Assembly: GCA_964596875.1 (NCBI GenBank)
Contig: CAZQVT010000001.1
Span: 175,161-239,160, forward strand
Reading direction: 5' to 3'
DNA from: an uncultured Candidatus Saccharibacteria bacterium
GTDB lineage: Bacteria > Patescibacteriota > Minisyncoccia > Phycocordibacterales > DATDWN01
DNA: 64,000 bases
Shown here: piece after piece, positions 5,149-53,023 of the stretch
How the letters are laid out: each line of letters begins with the position of its first letter
How positions within the stretch are numbered: the stretch's first letter is position 1
Notes under the pieces: model-generated
Databases searched by the model: none
Told to the model about the DNA's origin: nothing
The model's input: the letters and a program-made list of their open reading frames with translations, nothing else
Program-made: the position numbers and the translations under genes

Positions 5149-5163
5149 TTTATATTAAAAAAA

Positions 5164-5192
5164 TTGACGTTTATTTAAATAAATGATATACT
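5164..5192 (+). promoter_or_regulatory. sigma70-like promoter TTGACG-17-TATACT driving GC-rich small ORF
   Basis: near-consensus -35/-10 with 17-nt spacer ~55 nt upstream of ORF; GGGAGG RBS at ~5233. Confidence 0.55.
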
Positions 5193-5247
5193 ATATATAG
5201 GTTAATCCGCTCAAGGTTTTGCCTTGGGAGAAGGGAGGTAGATCAAA

Positions 5248-5460
5248 ATGACGCCACTTGCGAGTGAAGTACCGATCGTTCCGAGCATCATTCCTCTGTT
5301 GTTCGGTGAAGAGGGTGACTCCGGAGACGACGGAGACAACGGAAGCTCCGGAGACGACGGAGACGGCGGAACCGGTCAGGGTGATGATCCGGGGGATTCT
5401 TCGGGAGATGACTCCGGACCCGACCATGACGACTACGGTCACGACTCCGATGCCGACTAG
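5248..5460 (+). CDS. small acidic Asp/Gly/Ser-rich protein (70 aa), GC-rich minicassette 1
   Basis: ATG 9 nt downstream of GGGAGG; hydrophobic N-terminus then D/G/S low-complexity tail; internal DNA tandem repeats; GC far above flanks. Confidence 0.4.
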   Translation: MTPLASEVPIVPSIIPLLFGEEGDSGDDGDNGSSGDDGDGGTGQGDDPGDSSGDDSGPDHDDYGHDSDAD

Positions 5461-5486
5461 TTCGGCATGTGACTGACTGACGAGAG

Positions 5487-5513
5487 CGCCACTACCAATC
5501 CGGTAGTGGCGCT
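5487..5513 (+). terminator. hairpin GCGCCACTACC-AATCC-GGTAGTGGCGC after small ORF
   Basis: perfect 11-bp inverted repeat followed by short T stretch. Confidence 0.5.
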
Positions 5514-5539
5514 CGAACTTTTATATTATAATTTTACAC

Positions 5540-10426: not shown

Positions 10427-10512
10427 CATCGTCTGCGTTGTTGCAGTTCAGTTTTGTTTGTTCACCTTACTACCTGTAAGGCTCACTCACAAAACTTCCT
10501 GCGCCTAGCATC
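10427..10512 (+). repeat. intergenic structured hairpin element, copy A (nested stems GTTTTGT/ACAAAAC and CCTTAC/GTAAGG)
   Basis: ~95% identical to copy B at 28221-28303; shares core with copies C, D, E. Confidence 0.7.
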
Positions 10513-10569
10513 CAATACTATTTATCTCCTTTTAGATTTACAAATGTTGTTTATCTGTAAAAATAAACA

Positions 10570-10597
10570 TTGACAAAATAGTTTTATTGTGTAATTT
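10570..10597 (+). promoter_or_regulatory. sigma70-like promoter TTGACA-16/17-TAATTT for GC-rich ORF
   Basis: consensus -35, AT-rich -10, AGGAGGG RBS at ~10621. Confidence 0.5.
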
Positions 10598-10633
10598 TAA
10601 TGTTGAACTGTTCCGACCCAAGGAGGGTCAAAG

Positions 10634-11305
10634 ATGGCGAAAAGCGTGAAAAAGGCTAAGGCTCGTCGAAACAACTGGAAGCGCGAAGCGACCGAAATCA
10701 TGGAGTTGCTGAAGGGCGCCAAGGCAACCATCGAGGCTCTCGAGCTCAAGCAGACTCAGTCGGATTCGGAGCTCGTCGGGGTGAAGGCCGAACTCGAATC
10801 GGCGAAGGCCGAACTCGACAAGGCCAAGGAAGAACTCGGTGCCGTGAAGGCCAAGTTGGCCGAAGTGGAGGCCGGCCTGTCGGCGCTGGAGACCACCAAC
10901 AAGGACCTGGTCAACAGGAACTTCGCTCTGGAAAGCGGCTTCTACGGCTCGCGTAGCAAGTCGCGTCGGCTCGAGAGTCGAAATCGCGAACTGCGGTTGG
11001 AAATCGACTCGCGCCGTCGGCTCGCCGGGGTTCTGGCTGTGTTTCATCACGCCAGTACCTGCACGGAGGACTGCTTAGAGGAGTTCGCGGCAGCCGGCCG
11101 GGCTGTGGGCGTCGACATCGACAAGATCGACAAGGCCCATGTGTCGGAAGCCTACAAGGCAGCCGGCCGTCGGCTTCACAAGCTGACCTGGGAGAAGGGT
11201 ATCCGCATGACCAAGTCGCACATGAGCCCTCAGTCAGCGACGGACTCACTCGAGGCTACGATCAACGCTGTCGAGCAGATGCTCGGGATGCGCGATCGGG
11301 TCTAG
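10634..11305 (+). CDS. coiled-coil hypothetical protein (223 aa), GC-rich minicassette 2
   Basis: heptad-like E/K/A/L-rich N-terminal half; strong RBS; GC ~58% vs ~35% flanks. Confidence 0.5.
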   Translation: MAKSVKKAKARRNNWKREATEIMELLKGAKATIEALELKQTQSDSELVGVKAELESAKAELDKAKEELGAVKAKLAEVEAGLSALETTNKDLVNRNFALESGFYGSRSKSRRLESRNRELRLEIDSRRRLAGVLAVFHHASTCTEDCLEEFAAAGRAVGVDIDKIDKAHVSEAYKAAGRRLHKLTWEKGIRMTKSHMSPQSATDSLEATINAVEQMLGMRDRV

Positions 11306-11323
11306 CCGAGGGGTGTAGAAGGT

Positions 11324-11358
11324 GGGGTGGCTTCGGTCGCCCCAGCTTCTTTTTTTTA
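11324..11358 (+). terminator. GC-rich hairpin + T9 run
   Basis: GGGGTGGC-TTCG-GTCGCCCC stem (with wobbles) followed by TTTTTTTTT. Confidence 0.6.
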
Positions 11359-19090: not shown

Positions 19091-19213
19091 ACTTCCAAAT
19101 TTGGCGATCTACTCGTTTCAAAATTGAAAATGTTCGTCACCTTACTACTTGTAAGGCTTCTCACATTTTCAATTCCTCAACTTTGTGTCTCATCCAAATT
19201 GTGAAAGTTTGTT
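19091..19213 (+). repeat. intergenic structured hairpin element, copy C
   Basis: outer stem ATTGAAAATG/CATTTTCAAT, internal loop TTCGTCA/CTTCTCA, inner stem CCTTAC/GTAAGG, 3' tail CAAATTGTGAAAGTTTG; homologous to copy D. Confidence 0.7.
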
Positions 19214-20713: not shown

Positions 20714-20840
20714 AAAATTTTCAAATTTGGCCAATCTCATCTTCTAAATTTTCAAAATTCTCGTCACCTTAGCACTAACTAAGGCTTCTCACATTTTCAA
20801 AATTTATAAGCGACCTTGTCTCAAATTGTGAAAGTTTGAA
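20714..20840 (+). repeat. intergenic structured hairpin element, copy D
   Basis: inner stem CCTTAG/CTAAGG compensatory relative to copy C; conserved flanks and GTGAAAGTTTG tail. Confidence 0.7.
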
Positions 20841-20850
20841 AAGTTTTTGT

Positions 20851-20898
20851 AAACGAAAAGGCCGACACGATAGTCTGTATGACCTGATCGTATCGGCC
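20851..20898 (-). terminator. hairpin GGCCGA(T)ACGAT...ATCGT(G)TCGGCC + TTTTCGTTT ending GC-rich minicassette 3
   Basis: 11-bp imperfect inverted repeat followed by T run on - strand, just after stop of 20917 ORF. Confidence 0.55.
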
Positions 20899-20916
20899 GA
20901 AGCCCGTGTGTGTGGG

Positions 20917-21186
20917 CTAGAACCGCTTACTGACGTACTTGAGTGCTTCCCAGGTGAGTAACACCAGTGAGGAGTACACGATTGGCAGTGACGCCAGTCC
21001 GTACTCGTAGCTCTCGGTGAACATGGAGACCATGAGTCCCAGAGTCAGTACTCCGTGCAGAAGCAGGGGAACGAAGTACAGTACTATTGCAGGGAGAACG
21101 AGGCTAATGATTGCCCCGAACACCCTGAGCCACTTGTCGTCTCGATACCCGCCCATGAGGAGCGGGTTAAAGCCCAAGCATCCCAT
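20917..21186 (-). CDS. hypothetical small membrane protein (89 aa, ~2 TM), gene 3 of GC-rich minicassette 3
   Basis: ATG preceded by GGAGGAGCG; hydrophobic helices; GC-rich. Confidence 0.45.
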   Translation of the reverse strand: MGCLGFNPLLMGGYRDDKWLRVFGAIISLVLPAIVLYFVPLLLHGVLTLGLMVSMFTESYEYGLASLPIVYSSLVLLTWEALKYVSKRF

Positions 21187-21194
21187 CGCTCCTC

Positions 21195-21299
21195 CTACAT
21201 CTTGAAGGCGATAACCGCCAGGATTACGGCGATGCAGCCCAAGGCGAATTGGATTTCTCTTGTAGCCTTCTTGAAGTACTCGAACTGTTCTTCGGTCAT
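21195..21299 (-). CDS. 34-aa single-TM peptide (MTEEQFEYFKKATREIQFALGCIAVILAVIAFKM), gene 2 of minicassette 3
   Basis: not in ORF track (<60 aa); ATG 6 nt after TAGGAGGCT RBS; stop 8 nt before next ATG. Confidence 0.4.
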   Translation of the reverse strand: MTEEQFEYFKKATREIQFALGCIAVILAVIAFKM

Positions 21300-21309
21300 G
21301 CCTAGCCTC

Positions 21310-21735
21310 CTATCGAAGTTGGACCATCTCGCCGACCACGTCGTCCTTGCCTTCGAGGCTTTGGACGATGAAGTTGGTTGCTCCGCAGGCGTCGCAGAGG
21401 AACTTCACGACATCCATCTTCTGGATCTCGAGTTCCTCCACCTTGTCGATCGTGACGAAGTTCTTGTCGACGATCTTGCCGAGATGCACTCGGACCTTGC
21501 CCGTTGTGTTCAACTTGAACGCGATCACTCCGGGCTTGGTGTCGTACCGGAGCTTCATCCCGATGGCGCTGTGAGGCACGATGGTGAACTGGACGGAGTT
21601 TTCAAGTGCGATCGCGTACGGCTTCATGGGCTGGGTTGTTTCCACCCAGTAAACCATTGAAACTATCGCGACCGTGAGTGCGCAAATGACGAGTATTCCT
21701 CGCCAGTGGCGGGACAGAGTAGTGTCTTCGGTCAT
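21310..21735 (-). CDS. hypothetical membrane-anchored protein (141 aa, N-terminal TM), gene 1 of minicassette 3
   Basis: ATG 6 nt after GGAGGCC RBS, consensus promoter upstream. Confidence 0.5.
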   Translation of the reverse strand: MTEDTTLSRHWRGILVICALTVAIVSMVYWVETTQPMKPYAIALENSVQFTIVPHSAIGMKLRYDTKPGVIAFKLNTTGKVRVHLGKIVDKNFVTIDKVEELEIQKMDVVKFLCDACGATNFIVQSLEGKDDVVGEMVQLR

Positions 21736-21754
21736 GCTGTGGCCTCCGATATTA

Positions 21755-21782
21755 ATTATATCATTTATACAGTATAAGTCAA
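21755..21782 (-). promoter_or_regulatory. consensus sigma70 promoter TTGACT-16-TATAAT (on - strand)
   Basis: read from reverse complement; 5'UTR GTATAAATGATATAATTAATATCGGAGGCCACAGCATG is homologous to 5'UTR of cassette 6. Confidence 0.6.
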
Positions 21783-21798
21783 GGTATAAAAACCTTCA

Positions 21799-21828
21799 TT
21801 TTAGACACATTTCCGGCCTTAGGGTATA
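21799..21828 (+). promoter_or_regulatory. putative asnB promoter TTAGAC-18-TATACT, near-leaderless
   Basis: -10 element ends 8 nt before ATG at 21837; divergent from cassette 3 promoter. Confidence 0.3.
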
Positions 21829-21836
21829 CTTTGTAC

Positions 21837-28220: not shown

Positions 28221-28303
28221 CATCTGCGTTGTTGCAGTTCAGTTTTGTTCGTTCACCTTACTACTTGTAAGGCTCACTCACAAAACATCCTGCGCCTAGC
28301 ATC
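28221..28303 (+). repeat. intergenic structured hairpin element, copy B
   Basis: ~95% identical to copy A over ~85 nt. Confidence 0.7.
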
Positions 28304-31308: not shown

Positions 31309-31830
31309 TTACGAATTGAATAATTTATGTATTTCAGGAAAGTATGTTTTGAAAATAATATTGTTTGGTATTATCTTTATTAAATCAATATTTTTCATGT
31401 GTTGTGCTTCCTTGCCGAAGTGGCTCAAAAAATTCTTTTTACAGATGGATCTGAAATTTTTTGAATCGATAGTATTTTTGATTTTTTTACCCACTATTTC
31501 CAGTAAGACACCCTCTGGATTGGGGTTACATAATTGAACTTTGTGGCGAAGACCTTTTATGTATAGTGCTATTTTTTGAGAATCATCAAGATCGTAGTCC
31601 GCCATAAAAAAGAAGTGGATTTTCTCACTTAGTTTTTTTGGTTTAATTTCATACTTTCGTGTTAAGCTAGAAACTTTATTACTGAAAGTCTTTAAGTCAT
31701 TAAACCCCCCCATAATCTCATATTTAAAAGATAAGGGCTTTGAGCAAAAATAAGTTTTGAAAAATCCAAAAAGATTGTATTCTGTGGGTCCTTCACAACA
31801 TATCACATATACATCCTTGGTACTTCTCAT
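31309..31830 (-). CDS. RloB-like (TOPRIM-like) protein, AbiLii-like
   Basis: N-terminal VYVICCEGPTEYNLF matches RloB family CEGxxTExxYF signature; 14 nt downstream of AAA_21 ATPase gene. Confidence 0.6.
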   Translation of the reverse strand: MRSTKDVYVICCEGPTEYNLFGFFKTYFCSKPLSFKYEIMGGFNDLKTFSNKVSSLTRKYEIKPKKLSEKIHFFFMADYDLDDSQKIALYIKGLRHKVQLCNPNPEGVLLEIVGKKIKNTIDSKNFRSICKKNFLSHFGKEAQHMKNIDLIKIIPNNIIFKTYFPEIHKLFNS

Positions 31831-31843
31831 AAATAGTTTATTT

Positions 31844-33052
31844 TTAAATAAATTGCTTGATCATGTGTTCGAATCCAATTGTATCAGGTGTGCCTCCAAG
31901 CAAACCGAGTCTATACTTCTTCTTTAAATTATCCCTATTTTTTACATCCTTCAATTCAGATACCTTGTAAACAATTGAATTATGCTTCTCTTTTTCCACA
32001 ATAAAAGTTTGATCAAGATTCAGGAGCTCTAAGGTTTCGTGATTATGTGTCGCAAAAAAAATTTGAGCATTACCAGTATTTATATCTTTGTTTTTAAATA
32101 AAGATATAATTGATTTCTCTATTTCTGGGTGAAAATACAAATTTGTCTCGTCATAGACAACTAAACCGCCCTTTTTGAAGACAGTAAGTAAATTATATAT
32201 ATGTGCAAAAAGCTCCTTTGTTCCAGCTGATTCTTGCATTAAATCTACGCTTTCATAAAAACCTTTATGTGAAACTTTCACTGATGATGTATTGTTTTCA
32301 ATATCAAGTGATTCAATAGTGTCGTCAAATCGACTCATTATATCTCTAGTAAGTTTTATCATTTCTTCTTTCTTGTTTTTTTCAGCAGTACTTATTCGAA
32401 ATGCATGAGATATTATTCCAAAAATAGTTGGCATAGAATCTAGCTCCGCAGTTTTCGTAAACCAGGACTTTAAATCCCTAAAATAATTAAAATCTTGACC
32501 AGCCCTAAACCCCTCTATTAGATGTGATAGAAGGGTTTGGTACTCAGCAAGCTTTAAAACTGAAAAATATGATTTATGATCTTTGAAGTCTGGGCCAAAA
32601 GTTATTTTTCCATTGAGTCTGTTGAATACAAGCTTAGGTTTTCCAGATTTTAACTTTGTGTTAGTTACGAACAGAGTTTCCGAGCTAATATTTTTTCTAT
32701 CCTTAATTTCTATGTCGTATTTGTAATAGTTTTCATTCAACAAAATATCTATACCAAGCTTGGTTGGTTTATTTTTAAAAGTAGAATGAAAGTTGTTGTA
32801 GGCTAAAATAGTGTCTTTTTGTTCAGGAGTAAGTGTTGTTTTTGTATACATTAAACGTATAAGCGAACTGATTGCTTTTAAAATAGTACTTTTGCCACTA
32901 GCATTAGCACCGTAGAATCCATTTAGAAGAGAAATCTTCTGATTTTTAAAGTTTAAATATCCATCTTCAGTAGTAGAACCTCCCTTTATAAAGTTCAATT
33001 CTAGTGGTTTACCAACAGAATAAAAGTTTGCTAAACGTATTTTTGTTATCAT
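31844..33052 (-). CDS. AAA_21/ABC-type ATPase, RloA/AbiLi-like
   Basis: Walker A GANASGKST, Walker B VVYDE, H-loop ATHNHE; 402 aa; low GC. Confidence 0.7.
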   Translation of the reverse strand: MITKIRLANFYSVGKPLELNFIKGGSTTEDGYLNFKNQKISLLNGFYGANASGKSTILKAISSLIRLMYTKTTLTPEQKDTILAYNNFHSTFKNKPTKLGIDILLNENYYKYDIEIKDRKNISSETLFVTNTKLKSGKPKLVFNRLNGKITFGPDFKDHKSYFSVLKLAEYQTLLSHLIEGFRAGQDFNYFRDLKSWFTKTAELDSMPTIFGIISHAFRISTAEKNKKEEMIKLTRDIMSRFDDTIESLDIENNTSSVKVSHKGFYESVDLMQESAGTKELFAHIYNLLTVFKKGGLVVYDETNLYFHPEIEKSIISLFKNKDINTGNAQIFFATHNHETLELLNLDQTFIVEKEKHNSIVYKVSELKDVKNRDNLKKKYRLGLLGGTPDTIGFEHMIKQFI

Positions 33053-33557
33053 ATTAATATTTATGCAATAAAATGTACAATTTAAAGTATAGTACCTTAA
33101 ATTAAATACGTCAAACCTTAGGGCAGGGGACTTCCCTACAAATAATAGGAAATTTTAGAACCTCAAATAATGGGGTTCGGATGGTAAAAGGGGTGCTATC
33201 TAGGTACCTAGAAAAGAGAACTCTAAGCCAATTATTTGGTGCATTTTTATATATAAATATTTAATGAAAACCATTTAATGATTAAACTGAACAAACGAAT
33301 CTTTTGAGCAAACCCCCTTAGGGACTATGCTAAAAAGATATATTGTGCGACACGGCTATATACTCCCCCCCTCTATATAACTAACTAAAAACAATAAAAC
33401 ATTTAATTACTAAAATAATTGAATATGTAATTATTTTGCATCAAAAAAATCCCGCCCCCACCCCACCCTGGTTCAGCCGGTTTACACAAAAGTAAAAATA
33501 CATATACTTATTACGAAACACAATATCCGTTCTTTTCGGTTTCTGGAGGTTCGCGCC

Positions 33558-34007
33558 ATGAATGGCATTGAAGGAAACGTTCAGCTGGTGTTCGTGCTGA
33601 TGGGCGTGATCTCTGGTCTTTTGGGCGGAATTGCCCACGCCAAGAAACGGCACGGTTTGGGGTGCTACAAGAACGGCACTCTGAGTCTGACACCACAGTG
33701 GTACCGCTGTGGCAGTTGCTGGACTGCCGTAGTCTTCTACGCGGTTTTCATGGGCTGCATTTTTGCGCTCATGCACGACATTTACTACGCTGGCACTCAG
33801 ACAGTTGGAGGTGCCATCGGACAAGTTGTCGTCACGTTTTTTGGTGTCATATTGTCTGCCGTGTTGACGTTAGCGGTGGCACTGCTGGGCTTGCTTGCCA
33901 TCGGCTACTCGGAACATCGCTGGCCTCAGTGTCGTAAGTATAAGTGGATCTCCTACAGCTTCGCAGTCATCGTTCGAACGTATCTCTATCACCTCACTAG
34001 ATACTAG
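33558..34007 (+). CDS. hypothetical integral membrane protein (149 aa, ~4 TM, Cys-containing), GC-rich minicassette 4
   Basis: ATG 7 nt after GGAGG; GC-rich. Confidence 0.45.
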   Translation: MNGIEGNVQLVFVLMGVISGLLGGIAHAKKRHGLGCYKNGTLSLTPQWYRCGSCWTAVVFYAVFMGCIFALMHDIYYAGTQTVGGAIGQVVVTFFGVILSAVLTLAVALLGLLAIGYSEHRWPQCRKYKWISYSFAVIVRTYLYHLTRY

Positions 34008-34028
34008 GAGCGCAGACAACCACCACAC

Positions 34029-34077
34029 ATCGCAAGTCGCAAGATCCGGAGGATCGCAAGGCGACTTGCGATTTTCC
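34029..34077 (+). terminator. 12-bp perfect hairpin ATCGCAAGTCGC...GCGACTTGCGAT + TTT
   Basis: immediately after 33558-34007 ORF; two further small hairpins follow. Confidence 0.55.
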
Positions 34078-34198
34078 ATATATAAAAATACAGGCTACTT
34101 GCCTGTTTCACATAAATACAAATAGCCCTTGCGGGCCATTTGTCTAATTAGTATAACTCTGGGGCTTTTGTATAGATAGTAAGTTATGCACAGGTAAC

Positions 34199-36053: not shown

Positions 36054-36160
36054 GATTGTTATTATAAGGTTTTTTTGGGTAATGTATAGGTTTGACCACA
36101 CCCTATCTATAATGTAGTCTGTATTGTGGAATACGGGTCATCTTGGCCCACGGAGAAACC

Positions 36161-36496
36161 ATGAGCGAGTCTCTTTTGGGTGAGGTTAAGTTCCCAGTGC
36201 AGTTTGCCTGCGATATCTGCGGGCATCACTTTTCGTGCGAGCGAGAGGGCCTGAAGAGCCACGAAGTCAACAGGAGGCACTTTATCAGACTGATTCGTAC
36301 CACGGTCGTTGCGGCCTGTCCCGCGTGCGATGCAAACGTGGGCAGATCATTCGATGAGCTGCTTCCGGATGCTCCTAACACTCTCGGTGAACTGCGAGCG
36401 CAGTACAAAGTCGCCCGCGGCAACGGTGCTGGGCCTCTCGAGGCCATCGGCTTCGCCAAGTTCAAGATTCGTCTCGTCAAGCGGAGGATCGCATGA
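36161..36496 (+). CDS. hypothetical Cys4 zinc-ribbon protein 1, GC-rich minicassette 5
   Basis: CxxC...CxxC, Arg/Lys-rich tail, GGAG RBS; ATG 36161 preferred over TTG 36143. Confidence 0.4.
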   Translation: MSESLLGEVKFPVQFACDICGHHFSCEREGLKSHEVNRRHFIRLIRTTVVAACPACDANVGRSFDELLPDAPNTLGELRAQYKVARGNGAGPLEAIGFAKFKIRLVKRRIA

Positions 36497-36783
36497 ATCG
36501 TCAGCGCCATCGGTTTGTATGCAGCAATTGTAGTACCTCATTCGAACCGGAGTGTCCGGTCGTCCCAACGGAGAACGTTCGGTCTGAAGTTCCGAAGGCG
36601 AAGCTCCTGGAGGCGAGTTGTCCGCTTTGCGGTTACACGGTCAAGATGATCGTGAACGGAGTGTTGGACATCGAGAGGCTTCATAGCGATCCGGTGAAAC
36701 GTCAGTACTTCCATCACAGGCGTCGCGGAATGGATGCTCCTCTAGCCAGGCGCTTGGCGAACCGGCTCGCCACAAGAAACTAG
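36493..36783 (+). CDS. hypothetical Cys4 zinc-ribbon protein 2 (translationally coupled)
   Basis: ATGA start/stop overlap with previous ORF, GGAGG RBS, CxxC...CxxC, basic C-terminus. Confidence 0.4.
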   Translation: MNRQRHRFVCSNCSTSFEPECPVVPTENVRSEVPKAKLLEASCPLCGYTVKMIVNGVLDIERLHSDPVKRQYFHHRRRGMDAPLARRLANRLATRN

Positions 36784-36806
36784 TTCCCGCCCCTCTGGGG
36801 CATACC

Positions 36807-36841
36807 AGCCCGTGGCCGAGTTCGCTCGTCGCGGGCTTTGT
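36807..36841 (+). terminator. hairpin AGCCCG...CGGGCT + TTT after zinc-ribbon pair
   Basis: 6-bp GC stem with weak U tract; also GCCCC-TCT-GGGGC hairpin at 36789-36801. Confidence 0.4.
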
Positions 36842-36853
36842 CACATCTCTTTG

Positions 36854-38755
36854 CTATTTATTGTCTTCTGGTTTCTTTTCCTCAAAGTCCGCGTCTCGAA
36901 CATTATCCCCTTCTTGTTTTGGAGCCTCAGTTCCAGCACTAGCGTTTGCTTTGTTTATCGCCTCCCCTATTTTAGATGTTTCGTTTGAAAGATCTACAGT
37001 AGCTTTTTTAATCGCTTCTATCTCTGAAGCAGTATTTGCAAGTACATCTTTCAATGCTTTAGATTTTTCTTCTACACTTGCTTTTACATCACTAGGCACT
37101 TTGTCGCCTGCATCTTTTAATGCTTTTTCTGCTGTGTAGATAAGTTGCTCACCAATGTTTTTTGCTTCAACAAGATCTTTTTTCTTTAAGTCGTCTTGTG
37201 CGTGCATCTCTGCGTCCTTTTGCATTTTTTCTATGTCCTCTTTAGAAAGTCCAGAACGAGCCTCTATGCGAATAGACTGCTCTTTGTTTGTCGCTTTATC
37301 TTTTGCTTTTACTGATAGGATTCCGTTTGCATCTACATCAAATGAAACTTCTACCTGAGGCATACCTCTTGGTGCAGGTGGAATACCGTCTAGAATAAAT
37401 CTACCTAGGGACTTGTTGTCACTTGCCATCGCTCTTTCACCTTGAACAATGTGAATTTCTACAGAAGTTTGATTGTCGGCTGCCGTAGAGAAAACTTGTG
37501 AACGACTTGCAGGGATAGTCGTGTTTCTCTCAACTAGTTTTGTTGCAACACCTCCCATAGTTTCGATACCAAGAGAAAGTGGAATAACATCTAGAAGTAG
37601 AACGTCTTTAACATCACCAGCAAGTATTCCACCTTGGATAGCAGCACCTAGGGCTACAACTTCGTCTGGGTTTATAGACTTGTTTGGATCTTTCTGGAAG
37701 AACTCTTTAACTTTTTCTGCAATTTTTGGCATTCTTGTCTGTCCTCCTACTAGGATAACTTCATTTACTTGTGAAGTAGAAAAACCTGAAGCCTCCATAG
37801 CTCTTTTTGTGATAGCCATTGCTCGGTCAATGAATTCTGCTGTAAGCTCCTCTAGTTTTGCTCGAGTTATTTTTATAAGCAAGTGTCGTGGACCAGAAGC
37901 ATCAGATGTTATGAACGGAATATTTACTTCAGACTCCATTGCCGTAGAAAGTTCTATTTTTGCTTTCTCTGCAGCCTCATCAAGGCGCTGTAGTGCTAGA
38001 GTGTCGCCTCTTAGGTCTATACCAGATTCCTTTTTAAATTCATCTGCAAGGAAGTTAATAATTTTTTGGTCAATATCTTTACCTCCCAAGTGTGAGTCTC
38101 CGTCTGTAGATTTTACCTCTATAACAGAGTCCCCTACTTCTAGAACTGACACGTCGAATGTTCCGCCTCCAAAGTCGAACACTACGATTTTCTCTTCTTT
38201 TTTACCCTTGTCAAAACCGTATGCAAGTGCTGCGGCTGTTGGCTCGTTTATGATTCGCAATACTTCAAGACCTGCAATAGCGCCAGCGTCTTTTGTTGCC
38301 TGTCTTTGTGAGTCGTTAAAGTATGCAGGCACTGTGATGATAGCCTGTGTTACTTTCTCACCTATTTTTGCTTCTACATCTGCTTTGATTTTTGAAAGCA
38401 CCATTGCAGATATTTCTTCTGGAGAATAGTTTTTATCTCCCATCTTTACACTTACCCCGCCCGTAGAGCCTTTTGAAACAGCAAAAGGAACTATTGCTTT
38501 GTCTTTTTGAACAGCTTCATCGTCAAATGTGTGACCAATGAATCTTTTGATCCCAAAAACTGTGTTTGTTGGGTTTGTTACTGCCTGTCTTTTTGCTAAG
38601 AGGCCCACAAGTCTTTCACCAGTTTTAGATGTTGCGATGATAGAAGGTGTTGTTCTTGCACCCTCTGAGTTTTCTAATATTTTTGGTTGCCCTGCTTCCA
38701 TGATTGCGACAGCAGAGTTTGTTGTACCTAAGTCGATACCTATTATTTTTGCCAT
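36854..38755 (-). CDS. dnaK: molecular chaperone DnaK (Hsp70)
   Basis: [16 protein letters not shown], full 633-aa Hsp70. Confidence 0.95.
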
Positions 38756-38774
38756 AAATTTTGTTTGTTAGTCA

Positions 38775-38900
38775 CAGAGCTTCCATTTTTGAAAAATTTC
38801 TTTGTTGGAACTTCGGAAACTCTCGTCACCTTATACTAGATAAGGCTCCTCGCTTTTCCTTGTTCCGCCTCGAACTTTTCTCAAAAACTGAAAGCGTGTG
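38775..38900 (+). repeat. intergenic structured hairpin element, copy E (in dnaK upstream region, + orientation)
   Basis: CTCGTCA-CCTTAT-ACTAG-ATAAGG-CTCCTCGC with outer GGAAA/TTTCC; compensatory stem change vs copies C and D. Confidence 0.65.
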
Positions 38901-38931
38901 GTTGATTAAAACTAGTAAAAATAAAACAAAA

Positions 38932-39237
38932 TTAATTTGAGTTTGGGCCTCTTGGTTTAGATCCTAGTGCGTAAACAGTAGCTAGTTTATATTTTTTAGA
39001 TACAAATAAAGTTTTAACAAAGTTGAAGATAGTTGTTTCAGTCTTTGAAACAATAGAAAGTAATAGGTCTCTACCCTTTAGAAGTAGTTGTTCAGTTAAG
39101 TATACAAAATCCAGTAGTCTAGCTTTTACTCTGCTACCTTCAAGGTAAACGAAAAATCTTGCACGAATAAGTTTGCCTTCCTTGTCTCGAAGTACTTTTT
39201 CTACGATATTAACTTGTGATTTTGTGACTTGTGTCAT
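38932..39237 (-). CDS. hypothetical protein between grpE and dnaK (101 aa)
   Basis: ORF only; ATG 39237 just after grpE stop; ORF-track TTG start at 39246. Confidence 0.3.
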   Translation of the reverse strand: MTQVTKSQVNIVEKVLRDKEGKLIRARFFVYLEGSRVKARLLDFVYLTEQLLLKGRDLLLSIVSKTETTIFNFVKTLFVSKKYKLATVYALGSKPRGPNSN

Positions 39238-39238
39238 T

Positions 39239-39838
39239 TTATTCAAAGTGTGCGACTTTTACTTTGGGCGCTCTTATCTCTTTTCCATTTAGTTCATATC
39301 CTACTTGTATTACGTCCAATATTTTACCCTCGTCATCCTTGCTGTCAACTTTTACTGTTTCTATGGCCTCATCTCTCTTACTATCATACATTTGTCCAAC
39401 AGGGTTTATTACATTTAAACCATGACCTGCCAAGGCGTTTAGAAGTTGAGTTCTTATATATTCGATACCAACTCTCCAGTTTTTATCTACTTTTTCCCAA
39501 GTCTCTTTGTTTCGCATTGCGTTGTCAAAAGAGTCTAGTGCTGGAATTATCTCAGAAATAAGGTCGGCTTTTGCAAACTTTAAAAACTCAGACTTTTCAT
39601 CCGCATCTCGTTTTCTAGAGTTAAGAAACTCTGCTTTATCGCGTTGCCAAGCATCCAAAATTTCTGCATTTTTCTTTTGCAACTCCTTTATTTGGGCCTT
39701 TAGTTTTTCTGTGCGGTCTTTTATCTCAGGAGCAAGGTTTTCCGGCATATCTTCAAAAGTGACATCGTCACCTGGGTCTGTGTCTACCTCGTCTTTTGTT
39801 ACTCTATTTAACTCTTCATCTCTCTGGTCATCATTCAT
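39239..39838 (-). CDS. grpE: nucleotide exchange factor GrpE
   Basis: coiled-coil N-terminus and C-terminal beta-domain typical of GrpE; start at MNDDQRDEEL. Confidence 0.85.
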   Translation of the reverse strand: MNDDQRDEELNRVTKDEVDTDPGDDVTFEDMPENLAPEIKDRTEKLKAQIKELQKKNAEILDAWQRDKAEFLNSRKRDADEKSEFLKFAKADLISEIIPALDSFDNAMRNKETWEKVDKNWRVGIEYIRTQLLNALAGHGLNVINPVGQMYDSKRDEAIETVKVDSKDDEGKILDVIQVGYELNGKEIRAPKVKVAHFE

Positions 39839-39891
39839 AGGACTGTATTTTAACACAAAAAATATATGGGTCAAATGTAGCACTTTGATTT

Positions 39892-39913
39892 AGTCGCCAT
39901 AGTACGAGGCGGT
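39892..39913 (+). repeat. direct repeat DR1 (AGTCGCCATAGTACGAGGCGGT, extends to ~35 nt)
   Basis: identical 22-mer at 40240-40261; both followed by (T)TTTTCGT. Confidence 0.7.
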
Positions 39914-39956
39914 CATTTTCGTATAAATATGTTATGTTAATTTCGGAGGTGCACAG

Positions 39957-40220
39957 ATGGCTTTTTGTCGACTTACTCGTGTAGTAAAGAAAGATGGAAC
40001 CACCAGGGATGTACTCCAGGTGTTTTACGATGATCAAAAGATCGAACCGGTAATTCTTGAAAAAGGAGAAGGAACTCAATATGTTATAGAAGGGACCACA
40101 ACCATCTTTGGGAATTCAGAAGAAATGCTTCCCGAAGATCTCAAGGCTGAGGTGCTGGCGATTCGTGATTCGATTGAGCGTGGTGAATTCGTAGACATTG
40201 ATCACAAGCTCGACAAGTGA
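39957..40220 (+). CDS. hypothetical small protein (87 aa), minicassette 6
   Basis: GGAGG RBS 7 nt upstream; 5'UTR homologous to cassette 3; flanked by direct repeats. Confidence 0.4.
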   Translation: MAFCRLTRVVKKDGTTRDVLQVFYDDQKIEPVILEKGEGTQYVIEGTTTIFGNSEEMLPEDLKAEVLAIRDSIERGEFVDIDHKLDK

Positions 40221-40239
40221 CCGTCACGTACGGCGATTA

Positions 40240-40261
40240 AGTCGCCATAGTACGAGGCGGT
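40240..40261 (+). repeat. direct repeat DR2 (terminator-like CGCC...GGCG + T6)
   Basis: copy of DR1 348 nt downstream. Confidence 0.7.
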
Positions 40262-40460
40262 TTTTTCGTTGGGTGATCTCTTAGTCTAGAGTAATTTACT
40301 CGTCGCCACTCCTAAATTCTCTCCGACCGCTGACTCGCTTGTTTTGTTTGCTAACAAAACATAGCTCCGTCTTCGAAGAGTAAAGAAAAAGCCCCATAAA
40401 AGGGGCTGTTTTCTATCTCTTCGACCAATGTGGAACGAAAATTTATTAAAATTTTCTCCT

Positions 40461-40517
40461 GGGAAACCCACAGTTTTCCCAATCTTTCCTCCACGGGAAA
40501 ACACCCAGTTTTCCCGA
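40461..40517. repeat. two tandem near-identical hairpins (C/T)GGGAAAAC-ACCCA-GTTTTCCC
   Basis: 9-bp stems 34 nt apart, REP-like. Confidence 0.55.
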
Positions 40518-40526
40518 CCCCTTTCT

Positions 40527-40594
40527 GCACCTCAGTGGAGTAAAAGAAAAACGCCCCTAAGGGCGTTAGTCTATCTTTTACTCCACTGAGGTGC
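40527..40594 (-). terminator. 20-bp perfect inverted repeat hairpin whose one arm is the last 7 codons of rpsI, nested canonical terminator in loop
   Basis: GCACCTCAGTGGAGTAAAAG...CTTTTACTCCACTGAGGTGC; loop contains CGCCCTTAGGGGCG+T5 on - strand. Confidence 0.6.
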
Positions 40595-40972
40595 TTTTCT
40601 CGCTTTTTTCAGACCGAATTTTCTTCTTTCCTTAGATCGTGGATCTCGTTTTAGGAAACCTGCTTTCTTTAGAGTTTTTCTTAGCATTTCGTCCCCTTCT
40701 ACAAGTGCTCTTGCAATACCGTGTCGCATTGCTTCTGACTGTGAGTGGATTCCTCCACCAACTATCTTTGCAGTGATCTTGAACTTTTCAGGAGTGTCTT
40801 TCAAAGGTTCTTTAACGATGTCTTGCATTCCCTTTATAGCAAAGTATTCATGTAGGTCTTTGTCGTTTACAACAAAACTTGTTTTAGATGCAGGAGTAAG
40901 TCGAACACGCGCAACAGAAGTTTTTCTTCTTCCAACAGTTTCTATGTATTTTTCTGATTTTGTTTTTTCCAT
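40571..40972 (-). CDS. rpsI: 30S ribosomal protein S9
   Basis: C-terminal ...KARKAPQWSKR. Confidence 0.9.
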   Translation of the reverse strand: MEKTKSEKYIETVGRRKTSVARVRLTPASKTSFVVNDKDLHEYFAIKGMQDIVKEPLKDTPEKFKITAKIVGGGIHSQSEAMRHGIARALVEGDEMLRKTLKKAGFLKRDPRSKERRKFGLKKARKAPQWSKR

Positions 40973-40988
40973 ATGTTTATTCAGTCTG

Positions 40989-41333
40989 TTATTCTGTTAT
41001 GATCAAATTATTCATCATCTTTGTTCGAAGTTTGTTCTTTGGAAGCATACCTGAAACAGCCTCTTTGAAAAGTTCACTGTATCCTTTTTTAGCAATAACT
41101 TGCTCCATAGTAGGCTGTCTTAGACCTCCTGGGTATCCAGAGTATCTACTGTAAGTTTTTTGTTTTCTCTTTGAGTCAAGGATAAGAGCTTTTGAAGTGT
41201 TTTTGATTTCAACCTTTACATCTGGAATAGAGTTTTTAGCAAATGTACCTAGGTTTTTACCCATTAGAAATACTGCTGCTTGTGTAGCTATTCTTCCGAT
41301 TCTTTTGTTTTCTGCGTCTAATGTGTATTTCAT
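40989..41333 (-). CDS. rplM: 50S ribosomal protein L13
   Basis: L13 N-terminal pattern, precedes rpsI. Confidence 0.85.
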   Translation of the reverse strand: MKYTLDAENKRIGRIATQAAVFLMGKNLGTFAKNSIPDVKVEIKNTSKALILDSKRKQKTYSRYSGYPGGLRQPTMEQVIAKKGYSELFKEAVSGMLPKNKLRTKMMNNLIITE

Positions 41334-52195: not shown

Positions 52196-53023
52196 CTAGA
52201 GTGATTCTATTTCATCTACGACTTTTTGCGTCTTTGCAGAGTTGAAACCTAGTCCCAACAACAAATCTGGGTTAAGAAGTAAAGTTTTACAAAGCACCAC
52301 CCCCTTGTCCAACAAATATTTTTTCTCACGGCCATTTAGTGACAAAAGACATGTGAGTGGGTGAAGTTTTGACTCCAAGATCATGTCGTGAAGGTTTCCG
52401 ACGGGCGGATAGTTCCAACCTATCATTCGTAAACCTCCCTGACAAGAACCGTATTCTATGGCCGTAGAGGTAAACTTTGTGTTTGTTACAAGCCAACCTT
52501 CATCTAGTTGTCTTTCTTTACCATACCTAAATGTCATTTTTCTCAAATCATCAAAACGAGCTTTCACATATAGAGCAATTTTTAAATCAGATTTTACACC
52601 GAGTTCATTATGAAACTTTGCTTCTACCATTATTAGTTTTTCTTCATTCCACGCCACAACATCCACCTCGTGCTCCACACAAAAACCACGAACAATTTTT
52701 CCAGTTTCTGCGGTGTAACCTTTCTGTCTGAAAATCTCGGCAACAAAATCTTCGAAAGGAAAACCAGATGGCCCCAACTCCATTATCGCTCTTTTTAGGG
52801 AGTACTTTAAAGCAATAGGCTTTTCTTCTTTATGAAGTAGTTCAAAAGCGTGTTTGTAAAGTTCGTGTGTGCTAATTTCTTTCGTAAGGTGTGACTTTAT
52901 GTGTTCAATAATATCCTGAACGGACTTGCTCGATGCCCCTGCTTTTTTAAGCGAACGTTCTAGTTTTTCGACATCAAATAACTCTTTTGTTCCGTCTGCT
53001 TTTACTACGTATATAGGTCCCAT
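52196..53023 (-). CDS. ATP-cone domain fused to restriction-endonuclease-like (Mrr_cat, PD-(D/E)xK) domain
   Basis: N-terminal VVKADGTKELFDVEKL ATP-cone-like; C-terminal D...EAK nuclease-like core. Confidence 0.45.
   Translation of the reverse strand: MGPIYVVKADGTKELFDVEKLERSLKKAGASSKSVQDIIEHIKSHLTKEISTHELYKHAFELLHKEEKPIALKYSLKRAIMELGPSGFPFEDFVAEIFRQKGYTAETGKIVRGFCVEHEVDVVAWNEEKLIMVEAKFHNELGVKSDLKIALYVKARFDDLRKMTFRYGKERQLDEGWLVTNTKFTSTAIEYGSCQGGLRMIGWNYPPVGNLHDMILESKLHPLTCLLSLNGREKKYLLDKGVVLCKTLLLNPDLLLGLGFNSAKTQKVVDEIESL

Follow-up and report, generated by a model that had tools for sequence, protein, structure and literature searches.

A putative accessory-gene slot with a serial terminator element between the rpsI and grpE operons of an uncultured Parcubacteria lineage

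The gap between grpE and the rpsI operon in an uncultured Candidatus Saccharibacteria bacterium (contig CAZQVT010000001.1; the 64-kb stretch analyzed here, positions 175,161 to 239,160, is called the window) contains a small open reading frame (ORF) for an 87-aa protein and two copies of a short direct repeat. An earlier note on this DNA had proposed that the repeats bracket a 348-nt mobile unit, one of a family of promoter-ORF-terminator cassettes moved in the manner of integron cassettes or of minigenes borne on miniature inverted-repeat transposable elements (MITEs). Such a cassette family does exist and the repeat is its hallmark, but the repeat is a predicted serial terminator and junction element, the upstream copy of which is a relic, and not the boundary of a mobile unit. 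We favor, with a probability of about 0.6, the reading that the rpsI-grpE gap is an insulated accessory-gene slot of a Parcubacteria lineage, the content of which turns over by homologous and illegitimate recombination. The genomes of Parcubacteria and of the Candidate Phyla Radiation (CPR) are tiny and streamlined, and how they gain accessory genes is little understood; a defined slot between two essential operons, in which single-gene units would be stacked, swapped and lost with no visible mobility gene, bears directly on this question, and the element provides a sequence handle for cataloguing such cassettes in metagenomes.

The direct repeat was recovered by a repeat search at 39887-39918 and 40235-40266 (32 nt, 91% identity). 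The 22-mer AGTCGCCATAGTACGAGGCGGT occurs exactly twice in the window, at 39892-39913 and 40240-40261, with no further match there at up to three mismatches; against the 0 occurrences expected from shuffles, a chance repeat is ruled out. Counted through the ...TTTTCGT tail, the copies run over 39887-39922 (36 nt) and 40235-40269 (35 nt), so that the ends originally assigned to them fall 1-2 nt short. A Logan contig assembled independently from run SRR12712864 is 100% identical to 38318-40478, both copies included, which rules out an assembly artefact as the source of the arrangement.

The downstream copy belongs to a complete element on the plus strand (40220-40269), the first base of which is the last base of the stop codon of the small ORF. 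Three parts make up its compound hairpin: ACCGTC/GGCGGT is the outer stem, CGTAC/GTACG the middle stem and GGCGA-TTAAG-TCGCC the inner stem-loop, after which come six T residues and CGT; the compound hairpin measures 44 nt and is followed by the U-tract, the element coming to about 44-50 nt overall. The minimum free energy is -23.8 kcal/mol (z = -4.9; 0 of 200 shuffles as stable), and because this stable fold precedes a T-run, the element is predicted to be a strong intrinsic terminator. The same combination of hairpin and T-run is found in the elements of the relatives described below, and is missing from the upstream copy. The repeat had been described as terminator-like, which is correct as to its nature but not as to the proposed pairing of CGCC with GGCG, since ACCGTC pairs with GGCGGT and GGCGA with TCGCC instead. 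Like Rho-independent terminators, the element places a GC-rich hairpin of high predicted stability, with a T-run directly behind it, where an ORF ends; it differs from them in its two-tier compound hairpin, in being more conserved than its essential neighbors, and in its reuse behind unrelated ORFs.

The upstream copy (39887-39922, plus strand) comprises only the 3' two-thirds of the element, that is the loop, TCGCC, the 3' arm and an interrupted T-run, TCATTTT. The full hairpin requires 15 nt located 5' of the repeat, which are present at the downstream copy only; as the repeat starts inside the inner hairpin's loop, its upstream copy is devoid of the entire 5' arm. Its fold is correspondingly poor (-5.9 kcal/mol, z = +0.5, with 140 of 200 shuffles equally stable), and it is a terminator fragment rather than a second terminator. 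It is 84-93% identical to the 3' part of the junction elements of three related loci (L014, L004 and L006; loci from public data are designated by L numbers), and it shares a private G (AGTCGCC) with the downstream copy. The stump starts at GATT, adjoining a TTGATT that resembles a former -35 box, and TTGATT serves as the -35 box of cassette 3 of L014. We infer that the fragment is a scar, left either by the loss of an upstream cassette or by an illegitimate join. The view that the repeats bracket a mobile unit, as target duplications or att sites do, accordingly gives way to one of successive array terminators, the upstream one truncated and unfoldable.

Comparison of grpE-rpsI synteny among relatives, suggested in the earlier note, reveals variable small-ORF arrays with the same element. 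Every relative for which the grpE neighborhood was retrieved carries one or more small ORFs in the gap, on the strand opposite to both operons, and across 11 distinct loci rpsI and grpE flank one to five different small ORFs. The units consist of a promoter, a Shine-Dalgarno (SD) sequence, a small ORF and a terminator, and are ended or separated by the element. Five units and four junction elements lie between grpE and rpsI in L014 (JACCDR011443190.1), two units and two elements in L006/L007, two units each in L008, L010, L016 and L018, and one unit each in L004/L005/L011, L015 and L017. The element stands behind different ORFs in L004/L005/L011, L006/L007 (two copies), L008, L013, L014 (four), L015, L016 and L017, and diverged versions follow the first cassette of L010 and the 87-aa family ORF of L018. 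Array units (2-5 per array) are co-oriented and spaced 280-630 nt apart, and in multi-unit arrays the element abuts the -35 box of the next unit (...GGCGGTTTTTTCGTATTGACA). The L014 junctions each read ...GGCGGTTTTTTCGT(A/G)TTGA(C/T)(A/T), so that the terminator T-run, four bases and the next -35 box are contiguous. The genes neighboring the relatives' arrays are housekeeping genes only.

When 30 cassette ORFs were compared all against all, only two families recurred: the 87-aa family (the window, L010 cassette 2, L018 cassette 2, L008 cassette 1 and L009) and a Cys-rich family (L008 cassette 2 and L016 cassette 2). Their order is combinatorial, with one ORF, X, preceding the 87-aa family member in L010 and L018, the 87-aa family preceding the Cys-rich family in L008, and another ORF, Y, preceding the Cys-rich family in L016. 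Most array ORFs are unlike one another in sequence, length and predicted class (membrane peptide, helix-turn-helix, Cys-rich, soluble). The window therefore contains an array with a single unit, and the 3' stump ahead of it would come from the terminator of a unit since lost. Regulatory sequence is also shared across sites: L006 (5515-5565, minus strand) and L014 (1774-1826) share, at 82% identity, a 50-nt module spanning the promoter and 5' untranslated region (5'UTR; TTGACAG...AGGAGG...start). The L006 cassette lies in the rpsI-grpE array, the L014 cassette lies in a slot on the dnaK side, and the two ORFs are not detectably homologous. The postulated family of promoter-ORF-terminator units is thus borne out by one to five units in the same gap of relatives, with mostly unrelated ORFs and a shared 5'UTR module. 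Extra SD-led small ORFs on the opposite strand occur in L014 (1824-2003 and 2433-2753) and L015 (4657-4992), even inside the gaps of the grpE-hyp-dnaK operon, so that several slots of this gene cluster appear to accept insertions.

The element is conserved to an unusual degree. In most of these relatives it stands behind an ORF in the form ACCGTCA(T)CGTAC-GGCGA-(4-5 nt)-TCGCC-A(N)A-GTACGA-GGCGG-TTTTTT-CGT. The identity of the window's 50-nt element is 88-96% with the copies of L014 and about 90% with those of L004 and L006, compared with 72-81% in DNA for the flanking genes, or 72-85% for grpE, rpsI-rplM and dnaK across the same three genomes. The outer and inner stems are nearly invariant in 15 copies and show one-sided changes only, with no compensatory covariation in the conserved stems; the middle stem is variable and poorly aligned. 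The distant copies (L008, L015-L018) keep the core GGCGA-loop-TCGCC...GGCGGTTTTTTCGT and have different, self-complementary 5' arms. The four copies of L014 are heterogeneous, some being closer to copies from other genomes than to each other, and both L006 copies have private states in common. Conservation of the element exceeds what a terminator structure alone would need. The rpsI operon is essential and the units are transcribed toward its 3' end, which makes strong selection for insulation a plausible cause; alternatively, the element may serve as a site for recombination or protein binding.

The element is also confined. The search for further copies that had been advised led back, in the window and in public data, to a single locus: there is no other copy in the window and every true match in the public scans falls at the rpsI-grpE locus. 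A 20-mer scan of 596 Gb of genomes (species representatives, among which the genome of the window is apparently absent) gave two exact matches, where by our own estimate about one is expected by chance; one lies upstream of tuf in a Binatia genome and the other inside a large Saccharimonadia ORF, neither with extended similarity, and both were judged to be chance. A degenerate pattern of the element identified three true loci in JGI metagenomes, all rpsI-grpE, and a fourth match (L012), inside a coding sequence of an unrelated high-GC contig, was likewise judged to be chance. The pattern is absent from 2.9 million viral contigs (IMG/VR).

Beyond the downstream element, the right intergenic DNA is a mosaic of the flank types of two relatives. 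Its first block (40270-40434) is 86.8% identical to L014 5153-5309, which continues into the true rpsI 3' end of L014, and contains, besides a hairpin at 40330-40365, a terminator hairpin that is bidirectional (40366-40428) and, at about 40413-40434, a pseudo rpsI 3' end with its own terminator hairpin that reads ...PHWSKR* on the minus strand; counted over 40276-40434, the window matches the L014 flank at 87% through the last 22 nt of rpsI. The second block (40435-40594) has its homologue in the right flanks of L004, L011 and L015, with 78.6% identity between window 40415-41100 and L004 5573-4884. It contains two GGGAAA..TTTCCC hairpins and a long terminator hairpin (40527-40594; -72.9 kcal/mol, z = -8.5), the right arm of which is the true rpsI 3' end (stop codon at 40571-40573), about 140 nt beyond the pseudo end. 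One arm of this true rpsI terminator hairpin is the coding sequence for APQWSKR. Both the mosaic flank and the doubling of the rpsI 3' end would be compatible with exchange through homologous recombination in flanking DNA after DNA uptake.

Under the reading that we favor, each unit of the slot would be an autonomous mini-gene, made up of a sigma-70-type promoter, GGAGG as ribosome-binding site, a small ORF and, at its end, a strong intrinsic terminator, and the units would be transcribed away from grpE, toward the 3' end of the ribosomal-protein operon. In the window, where a single unit survives with a complete element downstream and an unfoldable 3' fragment upstream, the complete element would end the transcript of the 87-aa ORF and shield the convergent rpsI operon from antisense read-through, a role that would explain the selection acting on it. 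[quoted passage not shown] The mosaic scars support recombination-driven turnover, and together with the stump, the states of the element copies and the 5'UTR module common to L006 and L014 they fit gain, loss and reshuffling by these two routes.

Several points weigh against this interpretation. A 50-nt element with invariant stems, conserved beyond housekeeping genes, could equally be a recognition site for a protein. No recombination event has been observed directly, turnover being deduced from comparison, and no near-identical strain pair differing by one cassette was found, L004 being equal to L005 and L006 to L007 across the locus. The part proposed for GATT/TTGA microhomology in the deletion comes from reading a single junction. 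The unit of the window has no recognizable -35 box, which makes expression of the 87-aa ORF a prediction, and the analysis covers 64 kb of a 265-kb contig, so that a recombinase could be encoded elsewhere in the genome.

In comparison with known systems, the locus fits best among recombination-driven accessory-gene slots, as a variant with arrayed units and a terminator-promoter junction in addition. Minimal mobile elements were defined in Neisseria (Saunders & Snyder 2002; Snyder et al. 2007; as summarized in PMC3787668) by variable gene content between conserved flanks in close relatives, without mobility genes, exchange being attributed to homologous recombination in the flanks. The same holds here for gene content, since rpsI and grpE are constant, one to five differing ORFs lie between them and the GC content at third codon positions (GC3) of the cassettes is above that of the host. 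What sets the present case apart is the ordered single-gene units, the conserved terminator-promoter junction repeat and the setting in uncultured Parcubacteria; the repeat itself could be used as internal homology.

An explanation that dispenses with mobility altogether, which we regard as unlikely, posits ancestral ORFs with a terminator, local tandem duplication, divergence of the ORFs and terminators retained by selection. It draws on the presence of the 87-aa family at this locus in the window, L010, L018 and L008, on cassettes 1 and 2 of L014, both of which resemble peptides with two transmembrane segments and a Cys loop, and on the private states shared by the two copies of the window and by the two of L006. 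Fast ORF evolution with a conserved promoter and terminator does occur, as seen in cassette 3 of the window (20850-21830), which is syntenic in L019 (3380-4220), in the gap between asnB and an S11-peptidase gene: L019 keeps the promoter (about 75% conserved, by eye), two of three ORFs and a terminator ending in TTTTCGT (about 88% conserved), and the main protein is 53% identical, compared with 86-87% for the flanking proteins. Divergence in place accounts poorly, however, for array ORFs that mostly differ in length and predicted class as well as in sequence, for their combinatorial order among genomes, for a promoter module common to different slots of different genomes, and for mosaic flanks that point to imported DNA.

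An integron-like system appears improbable. The hairpin would then be an analogue of attC, active as folded single-stranded DNA, and a recombinase encoded elsewhere would excise cassettes as circles and insert them at the element. Two to five co-oriented small, mostly orphan ORFs, variable in number and combinatorial in order, separated by an imperfect hairpin with a bulged base that is conserved in sequence, not in structure alone, beyond the flanking genes, do recall chromosomal integrons and clusters of attC sites without integrase (CALINs). The element ends, (A/T)ACCGTC and GGCGGTTTTTT, speak against kinship, since neither strand of any of the 15 copies fits the attC boxes R'' (RYYYAAC) and R' (GTTRRRY) when inspected by eye, and its about 44-50 nt are followed by the U-tract typical of Rho-independent terminators. 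Integron cassettes, mostly promoterless and served by a common Pc promoter, also differ from these units, each of which has its own SD and, in general, its own TTGACA/-10 promoter directly after the preceding element. An integron integrase (IntI) was found neither in the window nor beside the relatives' arrays, and the element is limited to one gap between housekeeping operons.

Very improbable is a derivation from phage morons, as prophage remnants or phage-delivered accessory genes. Morons, in the usage of Hendrix and colleagues, are reportedly defined by promoter-ORF-terminator architecture and atypical composition, and the units, self-contained, atypical in composition, coding for small orphans and placed between unrelated genes, match this description. 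They are found, unlike morons, in a bacterial chromosome among core operons, in series and with one terminator family; there are no phage genes nearby and no significant PHROG matches, the element is absent from the viral contigs mentioned above, which hold no relatives of the 87-aa family or of window cassettes 3a and 2, and a fold search of the 87-aa model against BFVD gave nothing below E = 0.016.

A minigene borne on a MITE or transposon, with the direct repeats as target-site duplication or element ends, has in its favor two repeats 348 nt apart around one ORF, and is hardly credible given a repeat of 32-36 nt that far exceeds known target duplications, an upstream copy that is a fragment of a larger structure present downstream only, the lack of terminal inverted repeats, of further window copies and of a transposase, and public matches outside the locus that are unrelated sequence judged to be chance. 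Nor is the element dispersed in the manner of repetitive extragenic palindromic (REP) sequences or bacterial interspersed mosaic elements (BIMEs), being present in the rpsI-grpE gap only. Movement of the integron or MITE type, as first envisaged, is thus not supported by an undispersed element devoid of attC and MITE features; the recommended search for an integrase or transposase found neither these nor other recombinase domains in the window ORFs of about 100 aa or more, and the window contains no tRNA or tmRNA as an integration target.

The window has 36% GC and its genes are housekeeping genes, with dnaJ, dnaK and grpE (39239-39838, minus strand) to the left of the 87-aa ORF and rpsI, rplM, rplQ, rpoA, rpsD, rpsK and rpsM to its right. 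The closest GrpE relatives are 72-85% identical and come from sources named Parcubacteria, Zambryskibacteria or Minisyncoccia. The grpE promoter (39847-39874, minus strand; TTGACC, 16-nt spacer, TAAAAT, with TG; 10 of 12 matches in a promoter scan) forms the conserved left border of the slot, the block GTATTTTAACAC...GGTCAAA being kept in all relatives. No known RNA family reaches gathering thresholds anywhere in the window, and none gives a meaningful match at E ≤ 1 in 39840-40600.

The 87-aa ORF lies at 39957-40220 on the plus strand, with an ATG start and a GGAGG SD at 39945-39949, 7 nt before the ATG, as had been annotated. Its 5' region (39923-39956) comprises a degenerate promoter and 5'UTR with a candidate extended -10 element TGTTAATTT at 39935-39943; a plus-strand promoter scan found no canonical sigma-70 site there, the TTGACA -35 box being missing where relatives carry ...TTTTTTCGTATTGACA. 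A word-indexed protein search returned only the query itself, and a full HMMER scan of 1.84 billion representatives returned six small proteins of 72-100 aa, aligned end to end at E values from 6.5e-16 to 8e-4 (the best being P0126 at 6.5e-16 and P0127 at 8.2e-12); long multi-repeat proteins also matched (P0129-P0133) have no informative domains. Two of the six homologues are the second cassettes of L010 and L018 at the same rpsI-grpE locus. Cassette 1 of L008 has the C-terminal 70 residues in common with the family, and the member found in L009 has other surroundings and another terminator. AlphaFold2, run on a seven-sequence alignment, gave a model with a mean confidence (pLDDT) of 85.3 and a three-stranded sheet, a linker and helices. 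With homologues down to E = 6.5e-16 and a confident model, the ORF is, on the evidence of sequence comparison, a real member of a small conserved family of ~90-aa proteins, and its product is probably a small soluble alpha/beta accessory protein.

No match to the 87-aa protein was found in Pfam, PHROGs or PADLOC, nor by sequence profile in the PDB; a Foldseek search of the PDB gave as its best hit, at E = 0.26 and a TM score of 0.23, chains of mycobacterial RNA polymerase complexes, which we judged to be noise and which we take to represent RbpA. L010 and L018 have members of this ORF family in the same position, in partial agreement with what the earlier note had named as telling against its proposal, relatives in which the ORF is an ancestral gene without flanking repeats; the ORF is thus a long-standing resident of the slot and not a recent arrival. 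Its GC3 (0.386) is just 2.4 standard deviations above the host mean of 0.285 ± 0.042.

The resemblance of its 5'UTR to that of window cassette 3 (21733-21770, minus strand), pointed out earlier, is upheld: the local alignment score of 30 exceeds the maxima of 20 against about 65 other ORF upstream regions and of 25 in 5000 shuffles, and among 435 pairings of 5' regions of cassettes in the window and in relatives this one comes second. Scores of 25-28 are reached by several pairs that are not orthologous, so that promoter, SD and ATG constraints explain much of the similarity, and the 5'UTR can also be aligned with those of the L010 and L018 counterparts. The resemblance to cassette 3 may mean that the regulatory modules go back to an old common ancestor or that they have converged on extended -10, GGAGG and ATG. 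The further link proposed to cassette 1 survives only as a 12-mer, ATAAATGATATA, in extended -10 context, the score over the whole 5'UTR being just 12.

The other cassettes of the window lie in five GC-rich islands in housekeeping gaps (5150-5530, 10560-11350, 20850-21810, 33480-34080 and 36100-36840), with GC of 0.49-0.61 and GC3 of 0.59-0.78 against the host GC3 given above. In each, between one and three small orphan ORFs are accompanied by a promoter of their own, GGAGG and a hairpin terminator. The island at 36100-36840 lies between dnaJ and dnaK on the opposite strand, and the ORFs of relatives in that gap differ. Cassette 3 has remained GC-rich (54% against 39%) both in the window and in L019.

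Translation signals separate cassette from core genes. GGAGG or GGAG is present 5-10 nt before the start in 9 of 9 window cassette ORFs (starts at 5248, 10634, 21735(-), 21299(-), 21186(-), 33558, 36161, 36493 and 39957) compared with a four-base SD core in 0 of 57 host genes of at least 100 aa, and the same split is seen in the loci of relatives. An anti-SD motif has been detected in just 48% of Parcubacteria 16S rRNAs (PMC9297842). The contrast raises the testable question of whether translation initiation is two-tiered or the cassettes stem from a foreign gene pool. A bolder proposal, which we consider doubtful, would see a new Parcubacteria cassette platform here: the terminator hairpin would be a recombination site, attC-like though unrelated to attC, for a recombinase encoded elsewhere or a hairpin-directed host pathway, yielding arrays of self-expressed mini-genes, and the cassettes and GC-rich islands would form a separate SD-dependent expression class alongside core genes without SD.

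Some other features of the window are worth recording. An 81-nt repeat has two copies that are 96% identical (10432-10512 and 28223-28303) and two incomplete ones (19137-19211 and 20780-20838); it is found downstream of genes on the plus strand and next to cassettes 2 and 3. It forms a long hairpin (-25 kcal/mol, z about -5; no Rfam match) in which the inner stem CCTTAC/GTAAGG is kept and the outer stems differ between copies and remain complementary. The non-coding stretch 33118-33418, adjoining cassette 5, is 71% identical to L004 11802-12106 and, with nothing above noise in Rfam (best rncO, E = 0.3), may be an unrecognized RNA gene. An AbiL-type defense pair (31309-33052, minus strand) consists of an AbiLi-like AAA ATPase (PADLOC E = 5e-55, Pfam AAA_21) and an AbiLii-like partner of 173 aa (E = 3e-4). 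It sits where gene orientation switches from plus to minus and cumulative GC skew peaks, at about 31 kb, which looks like a replication terminus. Finally, the minus strand at 52196-53023 encodes a 275-aa protein with both an ATP-cone domain and a restriction endonuclease domain of the Mrr type.

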